DNA of 60,432 bases, filler included, from Nitrospinae bacterium RIFCSPLOWO2_12_FULL_45_22 (GTDB lineage: Bacteria > 2-12-FULL-45-22), in NCBI GenBank assembly GCA_001803565.1. It is 5 parts of 5 records of this genome, joined end to end, with 100 filler letters (N's around TTAATTAATTAA, not from the genome) between each part and the next. Parts side by side here need not be neighbours in the genome. Positions count along the whole stretch, not along the records: positions 46,456 to 54,570 come from MHDQ01000155.1; 4 more parts are not named here. One strand, 5' to 3'. The position numbers and the translations under genes were made by a program. Below, piece after piece: positions 9,759 through 52,273 of the stretch. Numbering within the stretch: the stretch's first letter is position 1; each line of letters opens with the position of its first letter. The notes under the pieces are model-generated. The model saw only the letters and a program-made list of their open reading frames with translations, had not been told where the DNA came from and made no database searches.

Positions 9759-9761
9759 GCC

Positions 9762-23980: not shown

Positions 23981-24388
23981 ATGAGGAAAAAGTTTATTGA
24001 TACAAATATATTCCTCAGGTATCTGACCAAAGATGATCCTTCAACGTATGATAAGTGCAGAGAAATCTTTAAGAAAGGAATAGATGGCAAAATAGCCCTC
24101 GCAACATCCGGAATGGTAATTGCTGAATTGATATGGACGCTTTTATCTTACTACAGGGTTCCGAAAGCCAATGCTATTGAAAAGGTTTCTATTATAGTCA
24201 CCACTGAGAGCCTACATATCCCTGAAAAAGATATTATCGCTGAGGCCCTTGTCCTCTACAGTAGAAAAAATGTCGATTACATTGACGCCTATAACGCTGT
24301 TTTCATGAAATATCATGGTGTTGATGAAATCTATTCATACGATAGAGCTTTTGATGCGATTGAAGGTATCAAGAGAGTGGAGCCATAA
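23981..24388 (+). CDS. VapC-family PIN toxin
   Basis: FIDTNIFLRYL, VIAELIW, DYIDAY, IYSYDRAFD. Confidence 0.93.
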   Translation: MRKKFIDTNIFLRYLTKDDPSTYDKCREIFKKGIDGKIALATSGMVIAELIWTLLSYYRVPKANAIEKVSIIVTTESLHIPEKDIIAEALVLYSRKNVDYIDAYNAVFMKYHGVDEIYSYDRAFDAIEGIKRVEP

Positions 24389-30130: not shown

Positions 30131-30131
30131 A

Positions 30132-30944
30132 ATGATGGCCCTCCTCGAAGCACCGCACACAATGTACCAATGCGAAGACCCAATGCTAGAAACAGAGGGG
30201 TACTTTTGGAGATCATCTACAGAACGCCTTGCGAAATATATTACCGACAAATACCAGTTGAATCCCACGTCAAGTTGTATAGTTTTTGATGCCTTGAACG
30301 TCATCGAACAATTCTATAGAACTAGGAAGTCGATAACTTGCAGTGGTCATACTATTGATGTGACATCAAGCCCAATCCTTGCAGAAGAAGGGCGGGTTTT
30401 ATTGCGACTGGCGATAAATGAAAGAGTTCAACATACGCTTGAAGTCGGATTTGGATTTGGCATGTCTACCTGTCATCTGCTCACCGCTCACGAGGTTACC
30501 GGAGGGTTAGAGCATTTGGCTATCGATCCCTTAGAGCAAAGTAAATACTATCAAGGCTGTGGGTTGATGAATGTTTTCCAAGCCAGATTGGGATCACGCT
30601 TCTTGTGGATTAAAGAGCCCTCAAATATTGCCTTGCCAAGGTTGCTTTCCTCGAGGAATCAATTTGATTTCTGCTTTATTGATGGGAGCCATATATTCGG
30701 AGATATATTTGTTGACTCCTATTATATCAATTTTCTACTTGGATACGGAAGGGTGCTGGTTCTGCATGATGCATGGCTTTCTGCAACGCAGACAGTTCGC
30801 AACATTCTTATTACCAATTTTGGATTCAGAGAAGAGCCAGATTCTTCTGTACCTAACTTAGTGATATTGAGAAAAGTTGGGGAAGGCAAACTCGACTGGA
30901 AAGAGTTCTCTACTCAATTTGAGCCATTTAAGGTGTCAGGGTAG
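30132..30944 (+). CDS. Class I SAM-dependent methyltransferase
   Basis: TLEVGFGFGMS, AIDP, FDFCFIDGSH, LHD. Confidence 0.82.
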   Translation: MMALLEAPHTMYQCEDPMLETEGYFWRSSTERLAKYITDKYQLNPTSSCIVFDALNVIEQFYRTRKSITCSGHTIDVTSSPILAEEGRVLLRLAINERVQHTLEVGFGFGMSTCHLLTAHEVTGGLEHLAIDPLEQSKYYQGCGLMNVFQARLGSRFLWIKEPSNIALPRLLSSRNQFDFCFIDGSHIFGDIFVDSYYINFLLGYGRVLVLHDAWLSATQTVRNILITNFGFREEPDSSVPNLVILRKVGEGKLDWKEFSTQFEPFKVSG

Positions 30945-30964
30945 AAACTTCTGAGGTAAATATT

Positions 30965-36487: not shown

Positions 36488-36587
36488 TAGCGCTTAATGG
36501 GGGCAGTTAATCCTTACCGATATTTTTGGTAAAGAAAGATTCAGATAAGATAAACAACGAACCATAGTATAGGGGGAAAGAGGTCCA

Positions 36588-39500
36588 TTGAAGATAGGGC
36601 TGCAACTGCCGGTAATCAATACCTTTAGGGCGGCGGTGTGGGGAGATGAAGTAATGGCTGTAGGTCTGGCAGATGCCTTATCCAGCCTGCCTGAGGCAGA
36701 GTTTGCTGAGGTTTATAGCCCGGTCACTATCCACGACAATCTGGATATAGTGATAAATTTTTATCCCTTCCCTGACGTGAGGCAGGTAGCAGGCCCGGCG
36801 CAATTCTGGTGGTACCAGGCCTCTATCTCACCCTGGGTGAGGAACCACCCCGATTTTACTAAGCTGCTTACTCTTTATAGGGGCTTTTTTGTGGCCAGCC
36901 CCAATCTGGCCACCGAATTGATAGAGCTAGGGGTACCGCAAGATAAAATCATGTTTTTGCCTATGTCAGCTAATAGCCGATTTTATCGGCCTGTAGCCCC
37001 ACAAGCTAAGTATGCCCATAACCTGGTCTTCTGTGGTAATAACCACCCGGGTCGGACCAGAGAAACTATTGAGCGCTATCTATTGCCGATACGGGAGCTG
37101 GGCCTGGTGATCTATGGTAATGGTTGGGACGATATACCAGAATTAAAGGATTGCAGCCAGGGACCAATGCATCCCAAGGAGGTACCGGCCCTATACTCTT
37201 CAGCCAGGATCATCCTTTCTACCCATCCGCAATGGCACCGCCTCATGGATGTCCCTACCTCCAGGCTCTGGGAGGCCGCGGCCTGCTCGGCCTTTATCAT
37301 CTCCGATAAATTGCCCACTGCCCGCCAACTCTTCGGAGATACTATAGTCTGGACAGACGGTTGGGATGACCTGCGAGAAAAAGTCCGGTATTATTTAGAG
37401 CATGAGGAAGAGCGGAAGCAGGTTGCTCAGGAGGCCTACCAGCTTGTTCTTTCACAATATACCTTTGACCATTGGGCCAACAAAATTATGGGATTTGTCC
37501 AGGATAGACTTCAGGAAAAGGAGAGACCCTCCCCAGTCATAAATAAATCTTCTACTCAAGAAATACCTTTAGTTAGTGTCATTGTTCCTACTTATAACCG
37601 GCCTGAGATGCTGGAAGGGGCTATAAGAAGCATTTTAAACCAGACTTATTCTGAGATAGAAATCCTGGTAGTCAACGATGGTGGAGAGGAAACAGAACAG
37701 ATCATAAACTCTCTGGATAAAGATCATAAGATTACTTACATTAAACACAGTCAGAACCATGAGCGCTCAGCCGCCAGGAATACAGCCTTGAAGCTGGCTC
37801 GAGGGAAATATATTGCCTATCTGGATGATGCCGATATTTTTTACCCGCATCACCTGGAAACCCTGGTCAATTTCCTGGAGAGCAACCCGTATAAAGTAGC
37901 TTATACCGATGCCCTTAGAGCGCATCAGGTGAAGGAGGAGGATGGGTATAAGATTATCAAAAAAGACCTGCCCTACAGTATGGATTTTTCAAAGGAATTA
38001 TTGCTTGTGCAAAACATCGCCCCCATCCTCTGTTTTATGCATGAAAAGTCCTGCTTAAATGAGGTTGGTCTATTTGATGAAACCCTTACTACCCATGAGG
38101 ATTGGGACCTCTGGATTAGGATGTCCAGAAAATATGATTTTGCCCATATAGAGATGATAACGGCCGAGTTTAGGACGAGGGAAGATGGCTCCAGTACGAC
38201 CAGTGGGCGGCTGCCAGATTTTTTAAGAACCATGGAAATCATATTTAAAAGGTACGAAGAGCATACAAAAAACAAACCCCAGATTATAGAGTTGCAGAAT
38301 AAGCGATTGGAATGGTTAAAGGGAGAAATCCATAAGGCCGCCAATCTTGTAAAATCAGAAAAAAGTCCCGGCCACATCAAGACCAGCATCGTGATAGTAA
38401 CCTACAATTCCCTGTCCGACATTAAATCCTGTCTGGATAGCATTGGGTCTAACACTGGACTCCCCTATGAAATTATCATTATTGATAATGCCTCTACCGA
38501 TGGCACCCAGGAATATTTAAAAACCCTGTCCCAGGCGAAGATACTCCTCAACCGGACCAATAACGGTTTTTCTCGGGCCTGCAATCAGGGGATCAGAGAG
38601 GCTAAAGGGGAATACATTGTTTTGCTGAATCCAGATACCCTGATCACTCAAGGCTGGGACACCAGGATGATTGATCATTTTAAGGATGGCGTTGGTGCGG
38701 TTGGGCCAATATCTAATTATGTGGCTGGCGTACAGAAGTGCGACCTATACCTGAAAGGAAACCTTAATGGAGAAAGGGATATCGAGGGGCTGGCGGCTAG
38801 ATTTTATCAATGGAACCGCGGTCAGGCAGTCGAGACCAAGCTCCTGATTGGTTTTTGCCTCGTTCTGAAGCGGGAGGTAATAGATAAGGTAGGGCTTTTG
38901 GATGAGGAGTTGTTCCTGGGTAATGATGACCTGGAATACTCGTTGAGACTGCGCCGCCACGGCTATAAACTGCTAGTAGCAACCGATACCTTTATCTACC
39001 ATAAAGGTCAGGCTAGCTTCCAATCGGAACTCCAATCGTATACCCAAAGATTGGTTCAGGAAAGCACCGATATCTTATATGAAAAATTGAAAAAGATTTA
39101 TAAGGATGAAGAGGTACCTACCAGTCAGGAGCTATGGGGAATAGACTGGTTTCGTCCCTCCCCTACACTCTTAGACCATGCTCCGGAGTCCACAGGTACA
39201 AGGCTGACTGCCGACTCTCATCAAGGCGATTATCGGACACGAACTACTGATTATAAATCTCGAATACCAGACCCTAATGAAACCCTCACCAGTATTGTTG
39301 TCCTTACTTATAACCAGCTCGAATATACCAGCCAATGTCTCGCCAGTATAGAACAATACACCTCAGGGTATCATGAACTGATCCTGGTAGATAATGGCTC
39401 TACAGACGGTACAGTGGCATACCTGGAGGGCCTGGTAAAAGCGGCTAATGGCCACCGGCATAAACTCATCTGTAATAAAGACAACCTGGGTTTTGCTAAG

Positions 39501-40373
39501 GGTAGCAATCAGGGGATTGAGCAGGCCTCAGGGGACTATATCCTCCTGTTGAATAATGACGTTATAGTCACAGCCGGCTGGTTAGAAAGGATGCTAGCCT
39601 GTTTTGAGCGGGATAGTTCGGCAGGTATAGTAGGGCCCTGCTCCAACCGTGTCAGTGGGCCCCAATTGGACCTAGAGGCAAACTACAATACTGTAGCAGA
39701 GATGCAGGAATATGCCCAGAAATTTAGTTGTAAAAATAAAGGAAGGGTCTTGGAATCACCCAAGCTAGTGGGATTCTGCCTCCTGATAAAGCGAGAGGTA
39801 TTAGACAAGATAGGGCTGTTGGATGAGAGATTTGGCAGTGGTAATTTTGAGGATGATGACCTCTGCCTACGGGCCCGCCAAGCGGGCTACAAATGCCTCA
39901 TTGCCCGGGATGTATTTATCCACCACTTTGGCGGACGGAGTTTTAAAGGGAATAGTATTGATCGGTGGGACCATTATGAGAAGAACTTGGGGCTCTTCGT
40001 TGAGAAATGGGGCTTGAAAGGCCCGGATAAAAAGGAATCCCTCGAAAAGCTCGGCATCCCACGCCGGGTCTATGCTAGCTATTATAATGACCTGGGAGAG
40101 AGATATTACGCTGATGCTGAGCTAGAAAAGGCCAAAGGACTATTTTTAGAGGCCATAGAGATAGATGCTAATTTTCCCCACGCTTATAACAATTTGGGAG
40201 TAATCGCCTGGCAGGAAGGCGATAAAGAAAGGGCCCTCCAGTTGTTCTTACGGGCCTATAGCCTGGATGGGCAGGATGGTGATGCTTTGGCTAATCTGGT
40301 ATCGTGCAGCGGTGAATTGGGCCGTTATCAGGAGCTAGAAGACGCCTTAATAGAAGCCTCGCATAAAGGGTAA
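36588..40373 (+). CDS. 1261-aa multidomain glycosyltransferase: CgeB-like GT-B + three GT2 + TPR
   Basis: RLWEAAAC; VSVIVPTYNR; TSIVIVTYN..LNPD; TSIVVLTYN..LNND; C-terminal AYNNLG TPR. TTG start. Confidence 0.9.
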   Translation: MKIGLQLPVINTFRAAVWGDEVMAVGLADALSSLPEAEFAEVYSPVTIHDNLDIVINFYPFPDVRQVAGPAQFWWYQASISPWVRNHPDFTKLLTLYRGFFVASPNLATELIELGVPQDKIMFLPMSANSRFYRPVAPQAKYAHNLVFCGNNHPGRTRETIERYLLPIRELGLVIYGNGWDDIPELKDCSQGPMHPKEVPALYSSARIILSTHPQWHRLMDVPTSRLWEAAACSAFIISDKLPTARQLFGDTIVWTDGWDDLREKVRYYLEHEEERKQVAQEAYQLVLSQYTFDHWANKIMGFVQDRLQEKERPSPVINKSSTQEIPLVSVIVPTYNRPEMLEGAIRSILNQTYSEIEILVVNDGGEETEQIINSLDKDHKITYIKHSQNHERSAARNTALKLARGKYIAYLDDADIFYPHHLETLVNFLESNPYKVAYTDALRAHQVKEEDGYKIIKKDLPYSMDFSKELLLVQNIAPILCFMHEKSCLNEVGLFDETLTTHEDWDLWIRMSRKYDFAHIEMITAEFRTREDGSSTTSGRLPDFLRTMEIIFKRYEEHTKNKPQIIELQNKRLEWLKGEIHKAANLVKSEKSPGHIKTSIVIVTYNSLSDIKSCLDSIGSNTGLPYEIIIIDNASTDGTQEYLKTLSQAKILLNRTNNGFSRACNQGIREAKGEYIVLLNPDTLITQGWDTRMIDHFKDGVGAVGPISNYVAGVQKCDLYLKGNLNGERDIEGLAARFYQWNRGQAVETKLLIGFCLVLKREVIDKVGLLDEELFLGNDDLEYSLRLRRHGYKLLVATDTFIYHKGQASFQSELQSYTQRLVQESTDILYEKLKKIYKDEEVPTSQELWGIDWFRPSPTLLDHAPESTGTRLTADSHQGDYRTRTTDYKSRIPDPNETLTSIVVLTYNQLEYTSQCLASIEQYTSGYHELILVDNGSTDGTVAYLEGLVKAANGHRHKLICNKDNLGFAKGSNQGIEQASGDYILLLNNDVIVTAGWLERMLACFERDSSAGIVGPCSNRVSGPQLDLEANYNTVAEMQEYAQKFSCKNKGRVLESPKLVGFCLLIKREVLDKIGLLDERFGSGNFEDDDLCLRARQAGYKCLIARDVFIHHFGGRSFKGNSIDRWDHYEKNLGLFVEKWGLKGPDKKESLEKLGIPRRVYASYYNDLGERYYADAELEKAKGLFLEAIEIDANFPHAYNNLGVIAWQEGDKERALQLFLRAYSLDGQDGDALANLVSCSGELGRYQELEDALIEASHKG

Positions 40374-40390
40374 TTAAGGAGAATAAGGTT

Positions 40391-42061
40391 ATGAGAGAGG
40401 AAAGAGCAAAAAACTGTACTACCCCTAAGCTATCGCTCTGTATGATTGTTAAGGATGAGGAGAAGGACATCTCTGGTTGCTTAGAATCGGTTAAAGGAGT
40501 GGTGGATGAAACCATTGTAGTGGATACTGGCTCTACCGACCGGACCGTAGAGATTGCTAAGAGCCTTGGTGCCCGCGTCTATTCCTTTAGCTGGTGTGAT
40601 GACTTTGCGGCGGCCAGGAATGAATCCATCCGTCATGCTACTGGCGACTATATCATCTGGCTCGATGCCGATGATCGAATAGAAGGGGCAGAGGTTCAAA
40701 AACTCCGGGAATTAAAGCAGTGCTTCCCCCGGGCTAAGAACCGGGCTTATGCCCTCCAACTACAGAGCCCTAGAGGTGGTCTGGTAGAAGATTCTTCTTA
40801 TCAAACCAGGATATTTCCTAACCTGCCCGGGGTCTGCTTTGAGGGGATCATCCACGAGCAGGTAGGTCATTCCCTCCAGAGATTACGGGTCCCTTTTGAA
40901 TGTGTCCCCATCAAGGTGACCCATTATGGGTATAGCGATCCTAAACATTTGCCCGAAAAGGCCGAACGGAACCTGGGGCTACTCTTGAGGCAGGAAAAGA
41001 AAAACCCTTCTGATTATGTCAATCAATTCCACCTGGCAGAAACCTATGGGGCATTAGGAAACAAGGCTAAGGCCCTGGAGCATTTCAAAAAAGTCATCTA
41101 CGAAACCAATTGCCAAAACGAAAACCACTATATACTCCTGGCCGCATATCTTGAAATAGCTAAGCTCTATAAAGAAATGTCTTTATACAACATAGCTACG
41201 AATACTCTGCACGAGGCGGCCCAACTCTTCCCTGATAATTCGCTGATAAGATTCCATCAAGGGGAAGTCTATTTCTGCCTGAGGAGATACGAAGATGCCC
41301 TTAAAGAGCTTTTTCTGGTCAAAGAGGACGAACTGGACCTGTTTGTGATCCCGATACCCACAAGGGCCATCAGCTATCTGCTCCATTACTATAAGGCCAG
41401 ATGCTATCAGGTATTAGCTGATCAAGCCGGGGCACAAGATACCCGGGGCAGTTTAGAAAAGGTCAGGGAAGAATATGAAAAGGCCTTGCAGTGGAACCCC
41501 AATGCTGTCGAGTGCCTAACTGATCTGGGTACTATCTATCTTAAAAGTGGTATGCTGGAAAAGGCCCGGGAACTATTAGAAAAGGCCCTGTCCCTGGGTA
41601 GGAAAGATTCGGCTCTTTATTCTAACCTGGCGCTGGTTTATGCCAGGCAGGGTGATGATATGCGGGCAGAACAATGGTATCAAGAGGCCCTTAAAATAGA
41701 GCCAGATTTGATCGAGGCCCTAACCAACCTGGGCCACCTCTATCTGCGAAATAACCGCTTAGAAGAGGCAGAAAGGACCTTTATGCAGGTAGTATCGAAT
41801 GGCCTGGAGAATGGTGGGCTGGTAGATGTGCATCTGGCCTTAGGTTATATCTATGCCCAGAGATTTGAAATAGAGTATTGCGTGAGGGAATGTGATCGGG
41901 CCCTGGCGTTGCTGGATATGCCCAGAGATATGGTACTGGAGAAATTAGAAGACCTGGTACAACTCTATAACGACATTGGGGTAAGATTAGAAAATGATAA
42001 TCGCCTCGCTGAAGCCCTTATGGGGTTCCGTACTGCGGTGCTATTAAGTCGTGCCGGTTGA
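40391..42061 (+). CDS. GT2 + TPR glycosyltransferase, candidate flagellin O-glycosyltransferase
   Basis: LSLCMIVKDEE, VDTGSTD, W.DDFAAARN, WLDAD, IHEQ, HYGY, then TPR repeats; last gene before fliC. Confidence 0.88.
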   Translation: MREERAKNCTTPKLSLCMIVKDEEKDISGCLESVKGVVDETIVVDTGSTDRTVEIAKSLGARVYSFSWCDDFAAARNESIRHATGDYIIWLDADDRIEGAEVQKLRELKQCFPRAKNRAYALQLQSPRGGLVEDSSYQTRIFPNLPGVCFEGIIHEQVGHSLQRLRVPFECVPIKVTHYGYSDPKHLPEKAERNLGLLLRQEKKNPSDYVNQFHLAETYGALGNKAKALEHFKKVIYETNCQNENHYILLAAYLEIAKLYKEMSLYNIATNTLHEAAQLFPDNSLIRFHQGEVYFCLRRYEDALKELFLVKEDELDLFVIPIPTRAISYLLHYYKARCYQVLADQAGAQDTRGSLEKVREEYEKALQWNPNAVECLTDLGTIYLKSGMLEKARELLEKALSLGRKDSALYSNLALVYARQGDDMRAEQWYQEALKIEPDLIEALTNLGHLYLRNNRLEEAERTFMQVVSNGLENGGLVDVHLALGYIYAQRFEIEYCVRECDRALALLDMPRDMVLEKLEDLVQLYNDIGVRLENDNRLAEALMGFRTAVLLSRAG

Positions 42062-42265
42062 AGATACAACAGTTCACCGCAGGCGCAAAGACCCAGAGAA
42101 GACTACTGTAATTTAGGCTAAGGGCAATGGGCGATAGCCTCTTGCCTATTGCATCCTCAGTGTCTCTGTGGTAAATACTCCCCTGAATGCTTACAAAAAA
42201 TGATATCCCCCTCTCCCCATAATCCCCAATTCCCCTTTCTTGCACAAGCTTTATTAAACACATCC

Positions 42266-42292
42266 TAAAGTTTTTTCCTGACATACCGATAA
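42266..42292 (+). promoter_or_regulatory. sigma28 (FliA) promoter of flagellin
   Basis: TAAAGTTT-N11-ACCGATAA against the consensus TAAAGTTT-N11-GCCGATAA. Confidence 0.88.
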
Positions 42293-42400
42293 GAAGGGAT
42301 GTAAGCAGAGCTGGATAAAGGAAGGAGGTGAAAAAGTGGGGGCTGCGGGTTGAGGCCCTGATTTCAACCCATCCAATAACCAATAACCATTTACCAATGT

Positions 42401-42414
42401 GGGCAAGGATGCCC
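42401..42414 (+). promoter_or_regulatory. Putative CsrA-binding hairpin in the flagellin leader
   Basis: GGGCA-AGGA-TGCCC hairpin with GGA in the loop, just before the AAGGAGG RBS. Confidence 0.7.
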
Positions 42415-42437
42415 CGATAATCAAGGAGGATAGAACC

Positions 42438-43262
42438 ATGGGATTAAGAATCGCTAATAATATTGCAGCTATGACTACCCACCGCTGGCTAGCCAAGGCC
42501 GACAATGAGCTGGGTAAGTCACTGGAAAGGTTGTCTTCTGGCTACCGGATCAACCGGGCTGCGGATGATGCTGCGGGTCTTTCGATTAGCAGCAGGTTCC
42601 GGGCACAGATAGTTAGCTTGCAGGCAGCCTCTAGAAACACCTCTGAGGCCAATGCCCTGGTGCAAGTGGCTGAAGGGGCCATGAATGAGACCAATAGTAT
42701 CTTGACCCGATTAAAAGAGCTGGCTACTCAGGCCGCTTCCAGTAACGTTAGCACGGTTGACATAGGGAAGATCAATGAGGAGGCTAACGCACTTCTGCTG
42801 GAAATAGACCGGATTGCCAATTCTACTAAGTATGGTGGTACTGCCTTGCTCAATACCAGTTATGCCGGTACCTTCCAGGTTGGCTATGAGAACGATGTCC
42901 AAAGTCAGATCTCTTTTACTATCTCATCGGTAACTACCACTGGTATAGGTTTGGGCACGGTAGATATAATGAATAGCCAGGCAACGGCCCAGGCGGCCCT
43001 TACTACCATAGACAGCGCTATCAGTACCCTGGCTACCCGCCGTGGTAACCTGGGCGCTATCCAGAACCGACTAACCTATGCCTCAGCTAACCTGGCCAGT
43101 ACCGTCGAGAACTACCAGGCTGCTGAATCGGTCATTCGCGATGTGGATATGGCCTGGGAGATGACGAGTTTTACCAAGAACCAGATCCTACTCCAGTCTG
43201 GTACGGCTATGTTAGCACAGGCAAATCAGTCCTCGCAGGTAGTGCTGCAGCTCTTTGCCTAG
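42438..43262 (+). CDS. fliC: Flagellin (short type, 274 aa)
   Basis: LERLSSGYRINRAADDAAGL, RGNLGAIQNRL, S.IRDVDMA. ATG at 42438 follows AAGGAGG. Confidence 0.98.
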   Translation: MGLRIANNIAAMTTHRWLAKADNELGKSLERLSSGYRINRAADDAAGLSISSRFRAQIVSLQAASRNTSEANALVQVAEGAMNETNSILTRLKELATQAASSNVSTVDIGKINEEANALLLEIDRIANSTKYGGTALLNTSYAGTFQVGYENDVQSQISFTISSVTTTGIGLGTVDIMNSQATAQAALTTIDSAISTLATRRGNLGAIQNRLTYASANLASTVENYQAAESVIRDVDMAWEMTSFTKNQILLQSGTAMLAQANQSSQVVLQLFA

Positions 43263-43390
43263 AGCTAGTATTACAGGGGTGGGGGTTAATATTCCCCCCC
43301 TCTGGGCTAATTTTTAGGGTCAGTGGTTAGGGGTCAAGGCTCTGATAGGTGATCCCTAATCCTGACCACCAATTTGGCAGGTGATATAAA

Positions 43391-43777
43391 ATGGACATTG
43401 AAGGGGTAAAGCTCCAAATCGCAAATATTTTGGGCTCTGGCGACTGGTCCGGTAAAAAGTCTAGGGCTGAGCTCACAACTGCAAAAAAGCCGGTTAGAGC
43501 GGACGAGAAGGAAGAGACCCAGCCAAATCAAAAGGGCGAAAAGCAACGCCTCTCACCTGAAGAGATAAAGGAGGTTCAAGCGCGGATAAATGAGGCTTTA
43601 CGTCATATGAATTACCAGATCAAGTTATATATTGATAAGCCTACGGGGCGTATTGCCGCGGAGATTATTGATAAAGAGACTAATGAGGTTATCCGCGAGA
43701 TACCAGAAAAGGAGCTCCTGAAGCTGGCCGCTAAGATCCGGCAGATGACTGAGAACGTTTTTGAGCACTATGCATAA
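43391..43777 (+). CDS. flaG: Flagellar protein FlaG
   Basis: IIDKETNEVIREIP.KELL motif; lies between fliC and fliD. Confidence 0.9.
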   Translation: MDIEGVKLQIANILGSGDWSGKKSRAELTTAKKPVRADEKEETQPNQKGEKQRLSPEEIKEVQARINEALRHMNYQIKLYIDKPTGRIAAEIIDKETNEVIREIPEKELLKLAAKIRQMTENVFEHYA

Positions 43778-43900
43778 CCATAAGAAGAACAGTAAGCAGT
43801 GAACCGTGGGGAGTGAGTAGTTTACGGCTCACCAGTTTTATCTTCTGTGCGTCTCGGCGTGGTGTAATTTGGGTATTTTTTTAAGGGAAGATTGTGCTAG

Positions 43901-46355
43901 ATGGTAGGTGCTAGTTCTATTAGTGGGTTGGTTTCTGGCCTGGATTGGGCTGAAGTCATCAGTAAACTTATCGCAGTAGAGCGCCGCCCCATAAATATCC
44001 TGGACCAGCGTCAGACCGAGTATGAAAATAAATTATCTGCCTGGCAGTCCCTTAATACTAAACTGCTATCTCTGAAGACCCAGGCGAGCCAACTAAACCT
44101 CAATACCGCCTTTAACCTCTTCAAAAATACCCTGACCTCCTCTTCCTCCACCAAGCCGGAAGATATACTGGCCGTCACCACCAGCACTGATGCTACCCCT
44201 GGGGTTTATAGTGTAGAGGTATCCAGTCTGGCGGCAGCCCGGAAGCTCTCTTCTCAATCCTTTACCAGTAAGACCACCACCCTGGGTTATTCAGGCGATA
44301 TAGTAATCAATGGCCGGGCAATTAATATTGCCACTACTGACACCCTGGTAGATATTCAGGGCAAGATAAATAATGTCAACTCAGGCAGCAATGCCACCAA
44401 GATAACTGCTTCCATCGTATCCTATTCCAGCACCGATTATCGCCTTATCTTAACCAGCGATGATACCGGACAGAATGTCTTCCGGATAGCCGATGCCAGT
44501 GCCAGCAATGTCTTGCAGAGCCTGGGCTTTACCACTAGCTCAGTCAGCATCAATAACCCCACCAGTGATGGGGCAAAGTCTAATACCTTTACCAGTAGCA
44601 CCACGGATATCCGCAGCCTCCTGGGCCTGAGTAGTACCCTGAGCAGTACTACAGTCCAGATAGGAAGTAACAATGTTTCGATAAATCTTGATACCGATTC
44701 TCTACAGACCATTGCGGCAACTATTGATGCCCTCGCTGGTATATCAGCCAGTGTAGTTACCACCACAGTCAATGGTCAGACCCTTTATCAATTAGATATC
44801 AGCGGAACTACCTCTTTTACTGATGCCAACAACATCCTGGAGACCCTGGGTGTCCTGAAAGGTACTAATGGTCAGGGGAACGAGGTCCATGCTGGCAGCA
44901 AGGCAAATACTACTGACGGGAGCACACCTATAACCGCAACCAATACTTTTGATCAGATTTTTGGGGCTAATGTTGGCACAACCGATACTATTACTATCCA
45001 GGGAACCAAGAATGATGGCACCGCTATAACTACTACCACTTACAATATCTATAGTGGTGGTAGCTATAAGAGCATAGGAGACCTTCTTACCACCATAGAG
45101 AGCCTTTATGGCGGAGCTTCCTATGTAGATGCCTATATCAGCGATGGGACGGATGGCAATACGGCGGGACAGGCAGTTATCAAAGACCTCACTGCCGGTA
45201 ATAGCCGTATGACCCTGACCCTGGTCGCTAATAATGAGGGTGGCGGAACTCTCGATTTCGGAGACATCACGGCCCGTACCAAGGGCTATTCTATGCAGGT
45301 GACTGCCGGGGCCGATGCGGTCTTTGCAGTAGATGGTACCACGATGACCCGCACCAGCAATACCATCACTGATGTTATAACCGGAGTCACCCTGGACCTG
45401 AAAAAGGCCGAGGCCGGTACTTCTATCACTTTGAATATCTCCCGGGACCTGGATGCCGTGAAGGAGTTGATCTCGGATTTTGTGGAGACCTATAATGGGG
45501 TCATCGGCTATATTAATGAACAGTATTATTATGATGAAGAGAAGAAGACCGGTGGCGTGCTGATGGATGATGGGAGCCTCAGGTCAGTCCAGTCTGATAT
45601 CCAAAGTATAATCCGCAATACTATAAACGGTCTCCCCACTACCCTTAACGCCCTGGCCTTTATTGGTATAAAAAGCGATTATAACCAGGGTGGTAAGCTG
45701 GCCATTGATGATACCAAGCTTACCAGTATGCTCCAGTCAGACTTTATGGGGGTAAGGAGATTATTTGCAGCCGAGGCTACTGCTTCTAACGCCCAGGTGA
45801 GCTATGTCTACCATACCGAAAATACCAAGGCGGGCGCTTTTGAAATCAGTATTACCCAGGCCGCAACCCAGGCCTCGATCACCGGCACTACCGACCTGAG
45901 TGGTGGCCTGGGTGGGGCTGAGACCCTGACTATTACCGATACTGCTTCTGGTAGGGTAGCTAACATCGGCCTTACTGCGGGCCAATCCCTTACCAGTATC
46001 GTCAATGCCATAAACTCTAAATTAGCTACCGAATATACCGAGGTATTGACCGGTTCAGTGGCCAATACCAAGACTTCGGCCGCGGGTGGCGGTGCTATTA
46101 GCAGCACTACAAAATGGTCTGAGATAAATACCGGGGGTGATAGTAACGATATTTCTAATGGCGGAACCATATCCTTTAGTGGTACTACTCGGACCGGGCA
46201 AGGAGTCTCCGGCACTTATACTATTACCGATAAGAATACCCAGACGGTAGCGGGCTTATTGTCCGCTATTGAATCGGCCTTCAATAACGAGGTCTATGCC
46301 ACCATTGATACCAGTGGCCGGCTGGTCCTGACGGATAAGTATACCGGTGACAGCA
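43901..46355 (+). CDS. fliD: Flagellar filament cap FliD, long form, cut by the contig edge
   Basis: ISGLVSGLD...I.KL..VER, DA...VDG....R.SN.ITDVI.GVTLDL, FVETYN. Confidence 0.95.
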
Positions 46356-46455
46356 NNNNNNNNNNNNNNNNNNNNNNNNNNNNNNNNNNNNNNNNNNNNT
46401 TAATTAATTAANNNNNNNNNNNNNNNNNNNNNNNNNNNNNNNNNNNNNNNNNNNN
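46356..46455. other. Artificial contig linker
   Basis: N44-TTAATTAATTAA-N44. Confidence 0.99.
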
Positions 46456-46782
46456 CAACAAGTCAGGACCCTTTTCCGTCAAGATTTCAAAGACGCCTTC
46501 GAGAAGTGCGATGTTTTAGTAACACCCACCAGCCCTACCCCGGCTTTTAAGATTGGTGAGAAGATTGAAGACCCACTCCAGATGTATCTTTCTGATATCT
46601 TTACTATCTCTATTAACCTGGGTGGAATACCGGCGATTAGTCTCCCTTGTGGCCTTAGTAAGGATAACCTTCCTATTGGTTTTCAGATACTGGGTATGCC
46701 TTTTGCTGAAGAGACTGTCTTGCGGACCGCTTATGCTTACGAGCAGCACAGCGGCCTGGGGCGTTTGCGGCCACAACTATAA
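46456..46782 (+). CDS. gatA: Glu-tRNA(Gln) amidotransferase subunit A, C-terminal part
   Basis: Translates [60 protein letters not shown]. Confidence 0.93.
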
Positions 46783-46900
46783 TCGTAAGCGTATAGCCTT
46801 CGTCTTTCAGCAGGAATGGTTAGTATGCTATTGAGTCGCCGGAATCATTAGGTAATTGGGTTATCGGTTTACCTAATAACCCAATTACCCAATCACGTAG

Positions 46901-48865
46901 TTACCTAACTGCCAGGTGACGGATTTTTTTCAGGAGGGCGATATTTTCTGTGTGGCCAGTCATACGGGCGGTTACCAGCCCCTGAACCCTCTTGCCCAGT
47001 AGGTAGAGATCACCCATGATATCCAGGACTTTATGACGGGGATATTCGTCTTCAAATCGCAATGTAGTATTAATGACCCTTTCTTCGTCTAGCAATATGA
47101 CATTGCTCAACCTTCCTCCCTTAGTCAGACCTTTCTCTTCTAAATATCCCACATCTTTAAGGAAGACAAAAGTCCGGGCTGGGGCAATCTGATTCTTGAA
47201 TCCTTCTCCCCACTTATGAGAATAGAAGAACTCTTGCTGGCCAATAGGCTCAGGGCAATCCATTATATACCGGATAGCCAGGCCAGGATAAGGTTCTATA
47301 GTCAAATATTCCCTTTGCGAGGGGTCACCTACAGCATAAAAGTCATCAATAATTATCCCTTGTTCAGGGCCCTCCTGCTCCTCTATACCACCTTCTTCTA
47401 TCAGTTGACAGAACTCCCTGGCCGACCCATCCATAATCGGTACCTCATCTCCCACCTTAATAAGGACATTACTGATTTCGTAAGCATGTAAAACGGCCAT
47501 AAGGTGCTCAATGGTACCGATGGAGATAGGCCCTTTCTTCAAGACGACAGCATTGTAAGTAGAATCTACCAGGTCGAGACGTGCAGGTATGTTTTGGCCT
47601 GAAGGGATATGAGAAAAGATGATCCCACTGTTAGGTGGTGCCGGTAGCAAGATCAGCCCTCCCTTTATCCCGGAATGGAGTCCCTGACCACACAGCACCA
47701 CACTTTGCTTAAGGGTCTTTTGCCGGGGGTATTTCCTGGCTTTAGCAAGTGGGTATCGTTGGCTATCCCGGCTAGTAGCTATCTCTCTCTGGATAAAAAC
47801 TGGTATGTCCTGAACCCTTATAGTCTCTTCCGGGGTAGAGGAAATTATCCTCAATATGATATTTTTTAATTCTTTAACGTTTCCTGGCCAATGATACCCT
47901 TCTAAGATAGCTAAGGCATCTTTAGTTATCTGCTTGGGTTTGACCCCTAAATAATGGGAGAATTGAGAGATAAAATACTGGACTAGAAAGGGAATATCTT
48001 GCTTCCTTTCTCGCAGCGGCAGAGTCTTGATAACTACCTGGTCCAGGTATTGCCAGAGGTCGTAGTTAAATCCGGTTATTTCAACCTCTTTCTTTAAGCT
48101 CTTGGTGGAAGAGGCGATTATTTTAGGAGGGTTCTCCCTATCTCTCATGATTTTTAAAAGGGTCAGGAGCTCCTGCTGGCTCTCTTGGTCCAGGGCAGCG
48201 ATCTGATCGAAAAAGATAGTTCCGGCTGGTGTTGGGCAGAGGGCCATTAGGGTTTCTTTAGTTAAACCCGGGCAATTGAGACGCAGGAAAGAACTATCTT
48301 CTTTGCCGCTGCTATGGTGAATAGCCCGGCCAATGAGCTCCTTACCCGTCCCTTCCTCGCCTATAATGAGTATGAGAAAATGTTCCTGGGCGAGAATAGG
48401 GATCATCTTTTTCAGCTCAAAAATAGCTGGGCTCTGACCCACAATCTCCTCGTTGGCGGAAGCGAGCCGGCTGGCTTCTCTCCCTTTACGTAAGGTCTTT
48501 TGCTGGGATAATGCCTGGTTAACAGTCTGGACAATATTTTCCAGCGATAACGGCTTTTCTATAAAGTCGAAAGCGCCTAGCTTCGTGGCCTTAACCGCAG
48601 TATCTATATTGCCATGCCCGGACATCATGATTATCTCCAGGTCGGGGCAGATAGCCCGGGCTAACTGCAATAATTCTATACCATCTATCCCTGGCAGCCA
48701 GACATCTAAGATAGCCAGATCGGGCGCTTCTTTCATTATTATATCCAGGGCCTGTGGGCCATTTTGGGCCTGGGATATTTGGAAGCCCTCATCTGTCAAG
48801 ATACCCCCTAACGAGTTCAGGATACTCTTTTCATCATCCACAATAAGTATATGGCCTTTGTTCAA
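46901..48865 (-). CDS. lpxC: Fusion of an NtrX-like receiver, a degenerate sigma54-type AAA+ domain and UDP-3-O-acyl-GlcNAc deacetylase LpxC
   Basis: Receiver: ILIVDDE, LDVWLPGIDG, MMSGHG, FIEKP. AAA+: GEEGTGKE, PLRER.QDIP, WPGNVKEL. LpxC from aa 381: RQKTL, G.GLHSG, TIEHLMA, EVPIMDGSA, APARTF, HKVLD..GDL, GH..N. Confidence 0.93.
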   Translation of the reverse strand: MNKGHILIVDDEKSILNSLGGILTDEGFQISQAQNGPQALDIIMKEAPDLAILDVWLPGIDGIELLQLARAICPDLEIIMMSGHGNIDTAVKATKLGAFDFIEKPLSLENIVQTVNQALSQQKTLRKGREASRLASANEEIVGQSPAIFELKKMIPILAQEHFLILIIGEEGTGKELIGRAIHHSSGKEDSSFLRLNCPGLTKETLMALCPTPAGTIFFDQIAALDQESQQELLTLLKIMRDRENPPKIIASSTKSLKKEVEITGFNYDLWQYLDQVVIKTLPLRERKQDIPFLVQYFISQFSHYLGVKPKQITKDALAILEGYHWPGNVKELKNIILRIISSTPEETIRVQDIPVFIQREIATSRDSQRYPLAKARKYPRQKTLKQSVVLCGQGLHSGIKGGLILLPAPPNSGIIFSHIPSGQNIPARLDLVDSTYNAVVLKKGPISIGTIEHLMAVLHAYEISNVLIKVGDEVPIMDGSAREFCQLIEEGGIEEQEGPEQGIIIDDFYAVGDPSQREYLTIEPYPGLAIRYIMDCPEPIGQQEFFYSHKWGEGFKNQIAPARTFVFLKDVGYLEEKGLTKGGRLSNVILLDEERVINTTLRFEDEYPRHKVLDIMGDLYLLGKRVQGLVTARMTGHTENIALLKKIRHLAVR

Positions 48866-48975
48866 ATTAGCCCCTCCTTTATCAAATTTAAATATAACCG
48901 TATATTATGTGCCCTTGAGCCAATCGGAAAGTCTGTTCGTGATGAGAGTCAGACGCTCGGTGTCAATCTTTCCTA

Positions 48976-49833
48976 TCAATAATACTTGCGGCGGCGGCCA
49001 AAGGTACCGGTCAATTTCCCATCCAGATAATCCAGGTCCTCTTCCTTTTTCAGGAGCACACCCATAAAGGGTAGTTCTTTTTCTACTATAGCCGGTGAGA
49101 TACCACCGGCTATCAGGGCTTGGATCCAATCTATCAGCTCACTGGTAGAGGGCTTCTTACGGAATTCATCCAATTCCCTCAACCAATAGAACTTATTCAG
49201 GCATTGCTGCAAGAGGTCCTGCTGGATATCAGGGTGATGTACCCGCACGATTCGCTCCATCAACTCTGGCCCAGGAAACTCTATGTAATGGAAGACGCAA
49301 CGCCGTAGAAAGGCATCGGGCAGCTCTTTCTCGGAATTGCTGGTAATGATTACAATGGGGCGGTGCCGGGCAATGATGGTCTTATCCAGCTCAGGTATAT
49401 AGAAGGACATCTCATCCAGCTCGTTCAGCAGGTCATTAGGAAACTCTAGATCGGCCTTATCAATCTCATCTAATAGCAGTACCGGCTGCGCTTCGAAAGT
49501 AAAGGCTAGGCCCAGCTTGCCCAGTTTTATATATTGGCTGATGTCGGAGATATCTTTATCACCAAAGCGGCTATCATGGAGGCGCTGGACAGTATCGTAA
49601 AGATAGAGCCCTTCCTGGGCCTTGGTGGTTGACTTAATATTCCAGACAATCAGGGGTTTACTCAGCCCTAAGGCGATATTATGGGCCAGCAAAGTCTTGC
49701 CTGTGCCCGGCTCGCCCTTGACCAGCAAGGGCCTGGCTAAAGCAATAGCGGCATTAACCACATTGCGTAATGCCTCTGAGACGATATATTTATGTGTCCC
49801 TTGAAACCGATCAAAACCATTATCCCTGCTCAT
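48976..49833 (-). CDS. MoxR-family AAA+ ATPase
   Basis: RPLLVKGEPGTGKT, LLDEIDKAD.EFPNDLL, EKELPDAFLRRC, KKPSTSEL. ATG at 49833 follows AAGGTGG. Confidence 0.93.
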   Translation of the reverse strand: MSRDNGFDRFQGTHKYIVSEALRNVVNAAIALARPLLVKGEPGTGKTLLAHNIALGLSKPLIVWNIKSTTKAQEGLYLYDTVQRLHDSRFGDKDISDISQYIKLGKLGLAFTFEAQPVLLLDEIDKADLEFPNDLLNELDEMSFYIPELDKTIIARHRPIVIITSNSEKELPDAFLRRCVFHYIEFPGPELMERIVRVHHPDIQQDLLQQCLNKFYWLRELDEFRKKPSTSELIDWIQALIAGGISPAIVEKELPFMGVLLKKEEDLDYLDGKLTGTFGRRRKYY

Positions 49834-49851
49834 ATCCACCACCTTTCATGC

Positions 49852-49914
49852 GTAACAGTTCACTACGCTTTGCGCTATTCTGAACCCTGCTAACTGAACC
49901 CCGTGAACTGTTAC
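49852..49914. mobile_element. 63-bp MITE with GTAA termini and an 8-bp target duplication (IS66-like ends)
   Basis: Perfect IR GTAACAGTTCAC / GTGAACTGTTAC; flanks TTTCATGC (49844-49851) and TTTCATAC (49915-49922). Confidence 0.72.
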
Positions 49915-49921
49915 TTTCATA

Positions 49922-51073
49922 CTAATTAAAAGCGCTGATACCGAGGACTTCTCGACCGATGATCAGCTTCTGTATCTGGGAAGTCCCCTCGGCCATGGTC
50001 AGGTGCCTGATATCCCGATAGTATCGCTCCACGGGAAATTCACGGGTATAGCCATACCCACCATGTATCTGGATAGCATTAGAAGCAATCTTTAGAGCCG
50101 CCTCAGTAGCAAAGAGCTTGGCCATAGCCGCTTCTTTGGCACAGGGGAGCCCTTTCTGCAAGAGGTGCGCAGCCCTCAAGCCCAATAACCGTGCCGCCTC
50201 ATTCTCCATCACTATCTCGGCTATCATCTCCTGTACCAACTGAAATCCGCCAATAACCTTACCGAACTGCTTCCTCTCCTGGGCATATTTGACGGAGGCA
50301 TCAATACAGGCCTGGGCAACACCAATGACGGCAAAGGCGACGGTACATCTTCCTATATTGAGTCCGGCAAGGGCTATCTTTAACCCCTCGCCCGGCTGGC
50401 CCAATAGGTTTTTACGCGGTACACGGCAGTCCTCAAAATGGAGTTCTGAGATAACCGAGGCCCGCATGCCCATCTTCTCTATATCCCGGGCGGTATAATG
50501 ACAGGTATCGCGCTCGACAAGGAAGGCGCAGATACCTTTTGCCCCTTTACTCCGGTCTATAGTGGCAAAGACTAAACCCATCTCGGCCTTACTGCCATGA
50601 GTGATCAGGGTCTTGGTCCCATTCAAGATATAATCGTCACCATCCAGGGTTGCCCGGCTCTCTAGACTGGCGGCATCAGAGCCGACATTAGGCTCGGTCA
50701 GGCCGAAGAAAGCCAGTTTGTCCCCGTTAAGCATGGGCCTTAAGAAACGTCCTTTCTGTTCTTCAGTGCCATGCTTATAGATATTAGTCAGGATCATGTT
50801 ATTAGTGGTTATAACGGTACGGATAGAGCTCCAGGCCCGGCCCAGCTCTTCTATCAATATAAAATAGGATATATAATCCAGGCCCATACCACCTGCCTCT
50901 TCGGGCAATAAGCCGCCAATATAGCCAAACGGTATGAGCTTTTTTATTATTTCACGGCTGGGGAACTCTTGCTGCTCCTCGTGCTCAGCGACAATGGGGA
51001 TGATCTCGGTATCCATGAACCTGCGGACAGTCTTCTTCAGCGCCTCCTGCTCTTCGGTCAGATCAAAATCCAT
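49922..51073 (-). CDS. Acyl-CoA dehydrogenase
   Basis: FGLTEPNVGSD, NGTK.LIT.G, AIQIHGGYGY, EGTSQIQ. Confidence 0.95.
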   Translation of the reverse strand: MDFDLTEEQEALKKTVRRFMDTEIIPIVAEHEEQQEFPSREIIKKLIPFGYIGGLLPEEAGGMGLDYISYFILIEELGRAWSSIRTVITTNNMILTNIYKHGTEEQKGRFLRPMLNGDKLAFFGLTEPNVGSDAASLESRATLDGDDYILNGTKTLITHGSKAEMGLVFATIDRSKGAKGICAFLVERDTCHYTARDIEKMGMRASVISELHFEDCRVPRKNLLGQPGEGLKIALAGLNIGRCTVAFAVIGVAQACIDASVKYAQERKQFGKVIGGFQLVQEMIAEIVMENEAARLLGLRAAHLLQKGLPCAKEAAMAKLFATEAALKIASNAIQIHGGYGYTREFPVERYYRDIRHLTMAEGTSQIQKLIIGREVLGISAFN

Positions 51074-51109
51074 GTTCCTTTCCCCTTAAGTTTGTTGCTT
51101 TCCTTTTTT

Positions 51110-51141
51110 GACGCACACCCACTTCGTGGGTACCCGACGCA
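51110..51141. repeat. 20-bp hairpin insert flanked by a 6-bp direct repeat
   Basis: GACGCA-[CACCCACTTCGTGGGTACCC]-GACGCA, inside a nonamer-type repeat that runs to about 51190. Confidence 0.65.
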
Positions 51142-51314
51142 GATTTTCAAGATAAAAATATCTGCGTATATCTGTGAAAATCTGTGTCCTAATTAATTCG
51201 GCATTGTCACATTAAAATTGACCCTATAACATGACAAATGTGACAAAGTTACCTTACAGGAACCGGAATGTTGATATTTTACAAGATTATGTCTTTAGAA
51301 GCAATAAAATAGCA

Positions 51315-51445
51315 TAACCATTCAGCCACCAGGGCGCTAAGTCGCCAGGGAACAAGCCGTGAGCAGTGAGGAGTGAGCAGTAAGGAGTAAGGAGTAAAGA
51401 GTTACTGCTCACTTCTCAGCGTTTCCGGCGTTCCCTGCGGTGAAA
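51315..51445. repeat. Nested nonamer/heptamer palindromic repeat
   Basis: Outer CACCAGGGCGCTAAG...GGCGTTCCCTGCGGTG; inner CGTGAG-CAGTGAG-GAGTGAG-CAGTAAG-GAGTAAG / TTACTG-CTCACTT-CTCA. Confidence 0.6.
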
Positions 51446-51559
51446 TTTTGAATAAGGATGATACCTGGTTGTAGAAATTTTTGGGGAAACATCAGTCAAG
51501 AATGGGCGTTGACAAAGAGAAGAGAATGGTTTATATGATAGCAGAATATGGGAGAGGAT

Positions 51560-52273
51560 ATGGAAAACTGGTTAAAAGGAGATTTTCACCTTCATACCGA
51601 GGAAGACTATCGGGAAAGAATTAGCTACAACGCTAAAGAGTTAATTGATAGGGCTGGCCAGCAGGGGTATAAAGTCCTGGCCATAACCAACCATGAGCAG
51701 GTGACTTTTTCCAGGGAATTAAAGGAATATGCTGCGGGGCAGGGGATAATTCTATTGCCCGGTACTGAGGCGACTATCAAAGGAAAGCATGTATTAATAA
51801 TCAGCCCGGACGGCTTCTTTCATCCCGAAAAGATAAAGACCTTTAAAGATTTGCAGCAAGCCCGACAGGATGGCGCCCTAATAATCGCCCCCCACCCCTT
51901 CTTTCCTGGTATCCACTCGCTGCGTTCTAAATTGATCCGATACCTGGGGGTATTTGATGCGATAGAATATTCCCATTTCTATCTCAGCCGGATCAATTTT
52001 AATATACCGGCCGAGAGACTGGCCCGGCAGCATGGTATTCCTCTGGTAGGGACCTCTGATGCCCATTGCTGGCGGCAATTTGGTGCCACATACAGCCTGG
52101 TAAAGGCTAAACAGGAATCAGAAGATATTATCCGGGCCATAAAGGAAGGTGATATAGAGATAGTTAGTCAGCCCCTGGGGGCTATTTCTGCAGCCCGATG
52201 CTATCTGGGAATCTGGTGGAACAGCCTGTGGGGCCTATTTCAATCCCCAAATTCTAGGATAGTGAGGAAGTGA
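51560..52273 (+). CDS. PHP-domain metal-dependent phosphoesterase
   Basis: DFHLHT, AITNHE, PGTE, HVL, APHPF, GTSDAH. ATG at 51560 follows GAGG. Confidence 0.9.
   Translation: MENWLKGDFHLHTEEDYRERISYNAKELIDRAGQQGYKVLAITNHEQVTFSRELKEYAAGQGIILLPGTEATIKGKHVLIISPDGFFHPEKIKTFKDLQQARQDGALIIAPHPFFPGIHSLRSKLIRYLGVFDAIEYSHFYLSRINFNIPAERLARQHGIPLVGTSDAHCWRQFGATYSLVKAKQESEDIIRAIKEGDIEIVSQPLGAISAARCYLGIWWNSLWGLFQSPNSRIVRK

Follow-up and report, generated by a model that had tools for sequence, protein, structure and literature searches.

Does a bacterium that carries its LpxC deacetylase on the end of a response regulator use the regulator to control the enzyme? The question is raised by a gene in a stretch of DNA of 60,432 nucleotides, filler included, from Nitrospinae bacterium RIFCSPLOWO2_12_FULL_45_22 (the window), which encodes in one polypeptide a receiver domain, the remnant of a sigma54-activator-type AAA+ domain and a complete LpxC. 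LpxC controls the flux through lipid A synthesis, commits the cell to lipid A and is a drug target; its regulation outside Enterobacteria and Pseudomonas is largely open. We consider it fairly probable that phosphorylation of the receiver controls LpxC function in this protein, and the data suggest that the bacterium switches outer-membrane synthesis directly by two-component signalling. We infer that the control is post-translational, and its direction could be either way.

A preliminary description, made from the sequence alone, had reported an uninterrupted reading frame of 654 codons and a series of receiver, AAA+ and LpxC motifs. The coordinates are correct, the gene lies on the minus strand (left unstated at the time), and every motif named is in place: those of the receiver, Walker A, the DQ at Walker B, FNYDLWQYL and the catalytic motifs of LpxC. 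The features on which the argument rests are the following.

46901-48865, minus strand: whole open reading frame (ORF), 654 aa, with receiver, degenerate AAA+, lid and LpxC; TTG start, stop codon at 46901-46903 (Pfam and NCBIfam).
48873-48878, minus strand: Shine-Dalgarno sequence AGGAGG, 7 nt ahead of the TTG start (sequence reading).
48521-48850, minus strand: receiver (REC), residues 6-115 (Pfam PF00072, E 2.8e-30).
48017-48445, minus strand: sigma54-activator-type AAA+ core, residues 141-283 (Pfam, alignment, and an AlphaFold2 predicted local distance difference test score, pLDDT, of mostly 86-96).
47768-48013, minus strand: AAA+ lid, residues 285-366, with PLRERKQDIP and WPGNVKELKN (Pfam PF25601, E 1.4e-22).
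47723-47767, minus strand: flexible linker, residues 367-381, where long relatives have a Fis-type helix-turn-helix (HTH) (pLDDT below 50 at 368-377; alignment gap).
46922-47722, minus strand: LpxC deacetylase domain, residues 382-648, catalytic motifs intact (Pfam PF03331, E 9e-75).

The order of the Pfam matches is Response_reg (6-115), Sigma54_activat / Sigma54_activ_2 (141-281), AAA_lid_14 (285-366) and LpxC (382-648), and in the alignment the homologues begin at the same position as the TTG start.

Whether the two halves belong together at all is the first point to settle, as a regulator gene and an lpxC gene could have been joined by a chimeric contig, a sequencing error or gene calling. 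LpxC starts at 47722, and the preliminary description had put the junction near 47730. In all four runs used for this purpose, from four studies, a single contig spans it (X2, 47231-47937; X3, 46844-48214; X10, 47344-47991; X16, 47439-48074). These contigs reach at least 250 nt to either side of 47722-47730 and contain no indels inside the ORF; the four runs were taken from 20, and a run that was possibly the source of the assembly was left out. A 901-nt stretch over the AAA/LpxC junction is present in these 20 runs, belonging to 17 studies of groundwater, soil and sediment metagenomes; there is no RNA run among them, and they have no bearing on expression either way. A protein 100% identical to the fusion (P0002) is on record from other assemblies, and two metagenome contigs, one identical (L034) and one from a strain with 98.9% identity (L035), carry the same intact 654-aa ORF. 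Moreover, the combination of receiver and LpxC, as judged by Pfam, is common to all 120 best relatives among 5.8 billion proteins. An artefact is thereby refuted, and we give it practically no weight. The sole indel in the contigs, an 8-nt deletion at 46879 in three of the four runs checked, lies downstream of the fusion stop codon. Two or three separate ORFs make up the fusion in a pair of metagenome-assembled genomes (L012:3173-5670 and L013:2920-5093); a frameshift, an assembly error or a pseudogene are possible explanations.

The C-terminal part has the hallmarks of an active enzyme. Its match to PF03331 (252.1 bits, cut-off 27) covers profile positions 1-266 of 268, and it passes the threshold of the NCBIfam lpxC model TIGR00325 with 235.4 bits (cut-off 187.25). 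The motifs E453-H454-L, T565-F566, H611-K612-V-L-D615, D619 and G637-H638 are present and align with TVEHLL, KHKILDAIGD and SGH of Pseudomonas aeruginosa LpxC; the EH, HKxxD..D and GH motifs supply the zinc ligands and acid/base residues. E453, H454, T565, F566, H611, K612, D615, D619 and H638 are each found in 120/120 aligned relatives (P0002, identical to the query, was dropped from this and all following residue counts). In an AlphaFold2 model built from a 120-row alignment (mean pLDDT 88.8), in which the receiver, AAA+ and LpxC domains are confidently predicted and the pLDDT falls below 50 solely in two linkers (131-136 and 368-377), the LpxC part superimposes on solved LpxC structures with a root-mean-square deviation (rmsd) of 1.6-2.1 A and a target template modelling score of 0.83-0.95 at 35-37% sequence identity. 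The fused LpxC is thus complete, as had been proposed, and by its motifs and predicted fold is probably a working enzyme.

The fusion shares the enzyme domain, the catalytic motifs and the fold with the stand-alone LpxC proteins of E. coli, P. aeruginosa and Aquifex aeolicus, and differs from them in its 380-residue N-terminal signalling extension. At the other end, residues 3-275 of E. coli LpxC (4mdt, 305 aa) align to residues 381-648 of the fusion, and roughly 30 residues at the C-terminus of the E. coli enzyme are without an equivalent in it. An LpxC within a multidomain protein is also known from the bifunctional LpxC/FabZ (NF009667, against which the fusion scores 196.9 with a cut-off of 465), but there the partner is a pathway enzyme at the C-terminus, whereas the window fusion has a signalling module at the N-terminus.

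Could the LpxC domain instead be a ligand-sensing or pseudo-enzyme part of a signalling protein, with the real deacetylase encoded elsewhere? The preliminary description had asked whether this is the only lpxC of the genome, and the answer obtained covers the relatives and not the organism itself, which is what leaves room for such a proposal. Within that scope it is clear: the fusion is the only PF03331 match in 5/5 genomes that hold related fusions. Among 151 sampled genomes from the phylum to which G003 belongs, in which LpxC matches were sized by their stop-to-stop open frame, 145 have an LpxC, with 15 matches of at least 690 aa, 21 of 417-514 aa and the rest of 281-393 aa. The middle class includes one match that scores like a stand-alone LpxC (G135), and a single genome (G039) has a stand-alone LpxC beside one of 442 aa; two matches in G078 are contig-end pieces. 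In nearly all fused-form genomes of this sample, then, the fusion is again the sole LpxC, and by these counts it is to be regarded as the housekeeping LpxC of the relatives. Together with the invariant catalytic residues, the TIGR00325 score and the close fit of the model to solved LpxCs, this makes a pseudo-enzyme very improbable.

At the N-terminal end the receiver is as well preserved as the enzyme. The quintet of conserved residues is intact in the window fusion (D10, D11, D54 in ILDVW, S82 and K104-P105), and among the 120 aligned relatives D10, D54, K104 and a serine or threonine at position 82 occur in 120/120 and D11 in 119/120. The receiver is therefore predicted from its sequence to be a working phospho-acceptor. 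Over 1500 sampled pairs of family members, mean pairwise identity is 60.1% for REC, 34.1% for the AAA core, 41.8% for the lid and 64.4% for LpxC, and between the window protein and its nearest relative P0003 the corresponding values are 78%, 32%, 58% and 75%. Such a distribution indicates that purifying selection keeps receiver and LpxC together, with both ends of the protein strongly constrained.

The module between them tells a different story. Walker A is intact (GEEGTGKE, residues 169-176), while Walker B reads FFDQIA, with the glutamate replaced (D220-Q221), and FNYDLWQYL (266-274) stands in place of FREDLYYRL, with N267 and Y273 at the two arginine-finger positions. The lid residue K331 in NVKELKN, which we take to be at the sensor II position, is nearly invariant in the fusion family. 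In true activators two loops contact sigma54, the GAFTGA loop and the loop preceding sensor I. Compared with Brucella NtrX, the window fusion is about 16 residues shorter at the first of these sites and about 8 residues shorter before sensor I; the alignment shows the GAFTGA motif to be absent and the loop region deleted. Likewise, a Pfam scan of the fusion gave no HTH_8 match, and the place of the C-terminal Fis-type HTH is taken by the 15-residue low-confidence linker. These substitutions and the missing HTH had all been read correctly at the outset. What does not hold is the view of the GAFTGA loss as a decay event of this protein, since NtrX itself and all 120 family members are without the motif (GAFTGA or GAFSGA in 0/120). 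Among the aligned relatives Walker B retains DE in 7/120 and arginines remain at finger position 1 in 9/120 and at position 2 in 3/120, whereas the Walker A lysine is kept in 118/120. As GAFTGA, the Walker B glutamate and the finger arginines are mostly or wholly gone, the AAA+ is, on this residue evidence, a pseudo-ATPase throughout the family that would be unable to hydrolyse ATP or contact sigma54. As the P-loop has been selectively retained, however, the remnant probably still binds nucleotide. The window protein is accordingly best classed as a homologue, not a functional member, of the sigma54 activators, because GAFTGA, the Walker B glutamate, the arginine fingers and the HTH were each tested and are missing.

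The origin of this module can be traced by its matches. Among solved structures, the N-terminal 363 residues are closest to Brucella NtrX (5m7n, E 7.5e-59, in one stretch over residues 5-363), which the N-terminal part of the model also resembles. The best NCBIfam regulator match is NtrX as well (NF051870), with 268.6 bits from the N-terminal part only against a cut-off of 600, so that the window fusion falls below the NtrX equivalog threshold. With NtrY-like kinase genes adjacent in some related loci (see below), these matches indicate that the fusion family descends from an NtrX-type regulator. NtrX of Brucella abortus (5m7n/5m7o/5m7p) resembles the fusion in its receiver and in a sigma54-activator AAA+ fold without GAFTGA, and some fusion relatives lie directly behind an NtrY-like kinase. 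In contrast to the window protein, NtrX keeps YLDEVAD, FREDLFHRL and the C-terminal HTH, where the fusion has DQ, FNYDLWQYL, no HTH and shortened loops, and bears LpxC instead of acting on DNA.

The relatives show what has been kept and what has been lost since. Their source names include Tectomicrobia, Nitrospinae/Nitrospinales, Candidatus Nitronauta and Schekmanbacteria, and their lengths fall into 38 of at most 718 aa, 81 of at least 720 aa and one of 466 aa. HTH status was judged by length class, by the alignment of one long form with NtrX and by a precomputed Pfam column (PF02954 in 5/120). In this long form, P0005, residues 5-450 align to residues 5-454 of full-length NtrX, from which it follows that P0005 consists of an entire NtrX-like regulator, with its HTH, and an LpxC behind it. 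Four architectures were found: REC-AAA-HTH-LpxC (P0005), REC-AAA-LpxC (the window protein), REC-HTH-LpxC (P0245 and P0254) and REC-LpxC. When 1.84 billion cluster representatives were searched with the LpxC domain alone, LpxC began at residue 126 or beyond in 37 of the best 40 matches, and the stand-alone LpxCs came after the fused forms, with at most 43% identity; that the fused LpxC domains form a cluster of their own fits a single origin. Pfam analysis of ten extended LpxC matches identified four REC-LpxC proteins without AAA+ (P0253, P0267, P0273 and P0276), two REC-HTH_8-LpxC proteins and four proteins that start inside the AAA+ or the lid and look like truncated gene calls. All six middle-size loci fetched from the phylum sample are REC-LpxC without AAA+. 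In P0245 (505 aa) and P0254 (491 aa) the AAA+ is gone and the Fis-type HTH is kept, a loss order opposite to that of the window lineage.

In a maximum-likelihood tree of the REC and LpxC columns only, the window protein pairs with P0003 (650 aa, support 100), and the two then group with P0004 and P0032 (support 99), of which P0004 (718 aa) has a full-length AAA+ and no HTH and P0032 (466 aa) lacks any AAA+. This clade is separate from a 33-row clade of short forms, in which the sequences labelled Nitrospinales, Nitronauta or Nitrospinae are placed, and the well-supported branches require at least four changes to short forms, a label that mixes HTH loss with AAA shortening (P0061, for instance, retains the HTH). 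At 654 aa the window protein is taken here to be the shortest form retaining the AAA+ (its tree neighbour P0003 has 650 aa). By its architecture and its place in the fused-LpxC cluster it can be assigned to an NtrX-LpxC fusion family, in which the receiver and LpxC are the constant pair and the AAA+ and HTH have been lost repeatedly, in either order. Features new in the window are the kinase-less context, the deletion of both sigma54-contact loops and the occurrence in one clade with 718-aa and 466-aa forms. The preliminary description had proposed that an NtrX-like activator was repurposed as an oligomerisation or allosteric module. The NtrX-like origin stands, but the part given to the AAA+ is optional at best, as the REC-LpxC and REC-HTH-LpxC relatives do without it; the emphasis shifts from the AAA+ module to the receiver as the constant regulatory element of the family.

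A receiver also raises the question of its kinase. We compared 37 loci (the window, L001-L013 and L034-L056, with near-duplicates that include L037/L038 and L041/L043/L053), and in nine of them an NtrY-like kinase gene immediately precedes the fusion, in the same orientation. It ends 10-57 nt ahead of the fusion in L001, L002, L007 and L013, and for L002 and L007 its Pfam domains are NtrY_N, HAMP, PAS, HisKA and HATPase_c. For the REC-LpxC loci, one of six has an NtrY-like match upstream. In 21 of the 37 loci (within L004-L012 and L040-L056) a gene for a NUDIX hydrolase overlaps the stop of the fusion, mostly followed by FabH (KAS III), and many of these 21 have a divergent pfkB-family kinase gene upstream; this neighbourhood links the fusion to fatty-acid initiation and possibly to sugar-nucleotide metabolism. 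Seven loci have neither context, namely the window, L034, L035, L003 and the cut loci L048, L051 and L054, and beyond the fusion itself no neighbours are shared between the window and the 13 genome loci. The cognate NtrY-like kinase that had been anticipated is thus found beside relatives and is missing from the 60-kb window. With 46.9 kb covered to one side of it and 11.6 kb to the other, the fusion is within these limits an orphan regulator.

One reading of this context is that the fusion is a relic, in which the N-terminal module no longer regulates in the orphan lineage and LpxC is constitutively active. The absence of a kinase from the window and the loss of the HTH would fit, as would the decay of the AAA+ core, at 32% identity to P0003 against 75-78% for REC and LpxC, and the repeated reduction of the family. 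The receiver, however, is undecayed in its invariant residues and in its similarity to P0003, which is as high as that of LpxC. None of the complete reduced forms that were examined has lost it, and it is common for the kinase of an orphan response regulator to be encoded at an unlinked site. We therefore regard a relic as decidedly unlikely and return to control by receiver phosphorylation as the preferred reading.

For this control we propose the following sequence of steps. A histidine kinase encoded elsewhere, NtrY-like by analogy with the relatives, would set the phosphorylation state of D54. Phosphorylation may alter receiver dimerisation, as in regulators of the NtrC/NtrX type, and altered dimerisation would in turn change the oligomeric or steric state, the activity or the lifetime of the tethered LpxC. 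The AAA+ remnant would serve as a folded, nucleotide-binding spacer or scaffold. Lipid A flux could in this way be tuned post-translationally, whereas the controls known from proteobacteria are proteolysis by FtsH/LapB and the binding of MurA. A more tentative extension, which we find rather doubtful, is that the P-loop provides a second input, either an ATP/ADP energy signal or a cofactor that sets the oligomer, and that the window protein is a living intermediate on the stepwise path from a hybrid of transcription factor and enzyme to a minimal receiver-enzyme.

Several observations weigh against control by receiver phosphorylation. Conservation of the receiver speaks for selection only, and activity, stability, localisation and partner binding are all possible targets of such control. 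No histidine kinase domain was found among 40 window ORFs scanned by Pfam, and tblastn searches of the window with four NtrY-like proteins were empty at 1e-3. The model has disordered linkers and a predicted template modelling score (pTM) of just 0.59, which leaves the mutual arrangement of the domains undefined, and it gives no defined REC-LpxC or AAA-LpxC interface. A second, stand-alone lpxC is possible in this organism, given that sole-copy status is known from relatives, and the fusion family is experimentally uncharacterised. A complex prediction for LpxC (376-654) with the receiver (1-125), both with alignments, returned a score of 0.00, which gives no verdict and is not evidence either way.

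Of the possible targets, stability deserves separate mention. The known controls of stand-alone LpxC are proteolysis involving FtsH, LapB and YejM and activation by MurA. Excerpts of a 2025 JBC review list as controls of lipid A synthesis FtsH/LapB/YejM, MurA, Ght, Lon and the transcriptional systems NtrYX and ChvGI, and describe the details of LpxC control for most lineages as 'still emerging' (PMC12444477). The receiver, with the AAA+ remnant, could form a phosphorylation-dependent degron or adaptor site for FtsH, Lon or ClpXP, which would vary the theme of LpxC proteolysis established in E. coli. Regulated proteolysis is the best-known control of LpxC, and Lon has been implicated for the alphaproteobacterial enzyme according to the same excerpts (PMC12444477). 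The missing counterpart of the E. coli C-terminal residues means that a different turnover handle would be needed, and the conservation data fit this possibility as well as they fit allostery. Against it, neither the window nor any of the 37 compared loci has a gene for a protease or adaptor linked to the fusion, and the data do not favour an effect on stability over one on activity. We consider control of stability unlikely as the specific form that receiver phosphorylation takes here.

In the window itself, the genes for flagellin, FlaG and FliD lie downstream of the fusion and are convergent with it. Upstream on the same strand, 110 nt from the fusion, is a gene for a 288-aa AAA ATPase (48976-49842, minus strand), weakly MadB-like (111.8 bits, cut-off 475), with an acyl-CoA dehydrogenase gene farther upstream. 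A scan of 46400-51600 returned 8 promoter-like sites against 7.8 expected and 8 terminator-like sites against 4.7 expected, and no sigma54-type promoter was seen by eye upstream of the fusion. Between the start of the fusion and the AAA gene, at 48887-48976, contig depth spikes (68.7 in X3, about 17 alongside), and loose contig ends that share one foreign consensus occur at 48905 and 48976 in three runs, which points to a strain-variable or shared 72-nt segment. As the 111-nt stretch 48880-48990 is single-copy in the window, the spike is not due to a repeat within it.

Other parts of the window, which has a G+C content of 43-49%, were noted in passing. Giant multidomain glycosyltransferase genes and sugar-nucleotide genes occupy 26794-46411, directly before flagellin, FlaG and FliD, and encode proteins of 1840 aa (two GT2 domains, a radical SAM and a GT1-like domain), 1261 aa (three GT2 domains and TPR) and 556 aa (GT2 and TPR); the region is probably a flagellin glycosylation island. 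Two adjacent genes at 8736-10445 (plus strand), one for a 4Fe-4S dicluster protein and the other for an EB_dh (ethylbenzene-dehydrogenase gamma-like) protein, have products similar to the beta and gamma subunits of a type II molybdoenzyme; a gene for the alpha subunit is not adjacent. The regions 18456-18914, 23981-24388 and 19180-19584 hold two PIN-domain proteins and a 134-aa fragment of cytochrome oxidase subunit I, which matches only positions 306-398 of that protein. The adenylosuccinate synthase encoded in the window is not close to any named sequence: its best matches with a name come from Candidatus Tectomicrobia (63%), and Nitrospinota and Nitrospirota follow at about 60%.

How does the proposed control compare with what is known? 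Receivers fused to an enzyme that is gated by phosphorylation occur in CheB, PleD/WspR and RpfG, which serve as the working analogy for the mechanism proposed here. Their outputs lie in signalling and adaptation, whereas the enzyme here is the committed step of an essential pathway, and unlike these proteins the window fusion has a dead AAA+ module between receiver and enzyme. Two-component input to lpxC is on record at the level of transcription. As far as the excerpts of the respective papers go, NtrX belongs to the atypical enhancer-binding proteins, has a variant GAFTGA and functions as a repressor (PMC6158489), and NtrYX represses lpxC transcription in Caulobacter crescentus (PMC12444477). 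In the parts available on Rhodobacter sphaeroides, an ntrYX mutant shows an 8.8-fold increase in lpxC transcripts, with no NtrX site at lpxC (PMC7240162). Excerpts on Desulfovibrio vulgaris describe a two-component system, DVU2931/DVU2934, whose regulator DVU2934 has lpxC as its single target (PMC3333781). The latter resembles the fusion in giving lpxC a dedicated two-component input through an NtrC-family regulator, and in the phylum sample fused forms are also common in the D. vulgaris lineage; it differs in that control is transcriptional and regulator and enzyme are separate proteins.

A search of the full-text literature, judged from listings and abstracts and with subscription journals and supplements outside its reach, found no paper on a receiver-LpxC fusion, which agrees with the initial impression that no characterisation had been published. 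In the parts of the 2025 review of lipid A regulation that were available, the words 'fusion' and 'fused' do not occur (PMC12444477). The window fusion is, then, a response regulator with an enzymatic output, in a pathway where such control is undescribed in the literature searched.

For the family, the fusion joins physically what NtrYX does transcriptionally in alphaproteobacteria, and as a receiver-enzyme fusion it offers a direct post-translational route to LpxC that can be examined with one purified protein. The window protein itself marks a step in the stripping of a transcription factor down to a bare enzyme switch, because one well-supported clade holds it together with the 718-aa form and the 466-aa form in which only receiver and LpxC are left.

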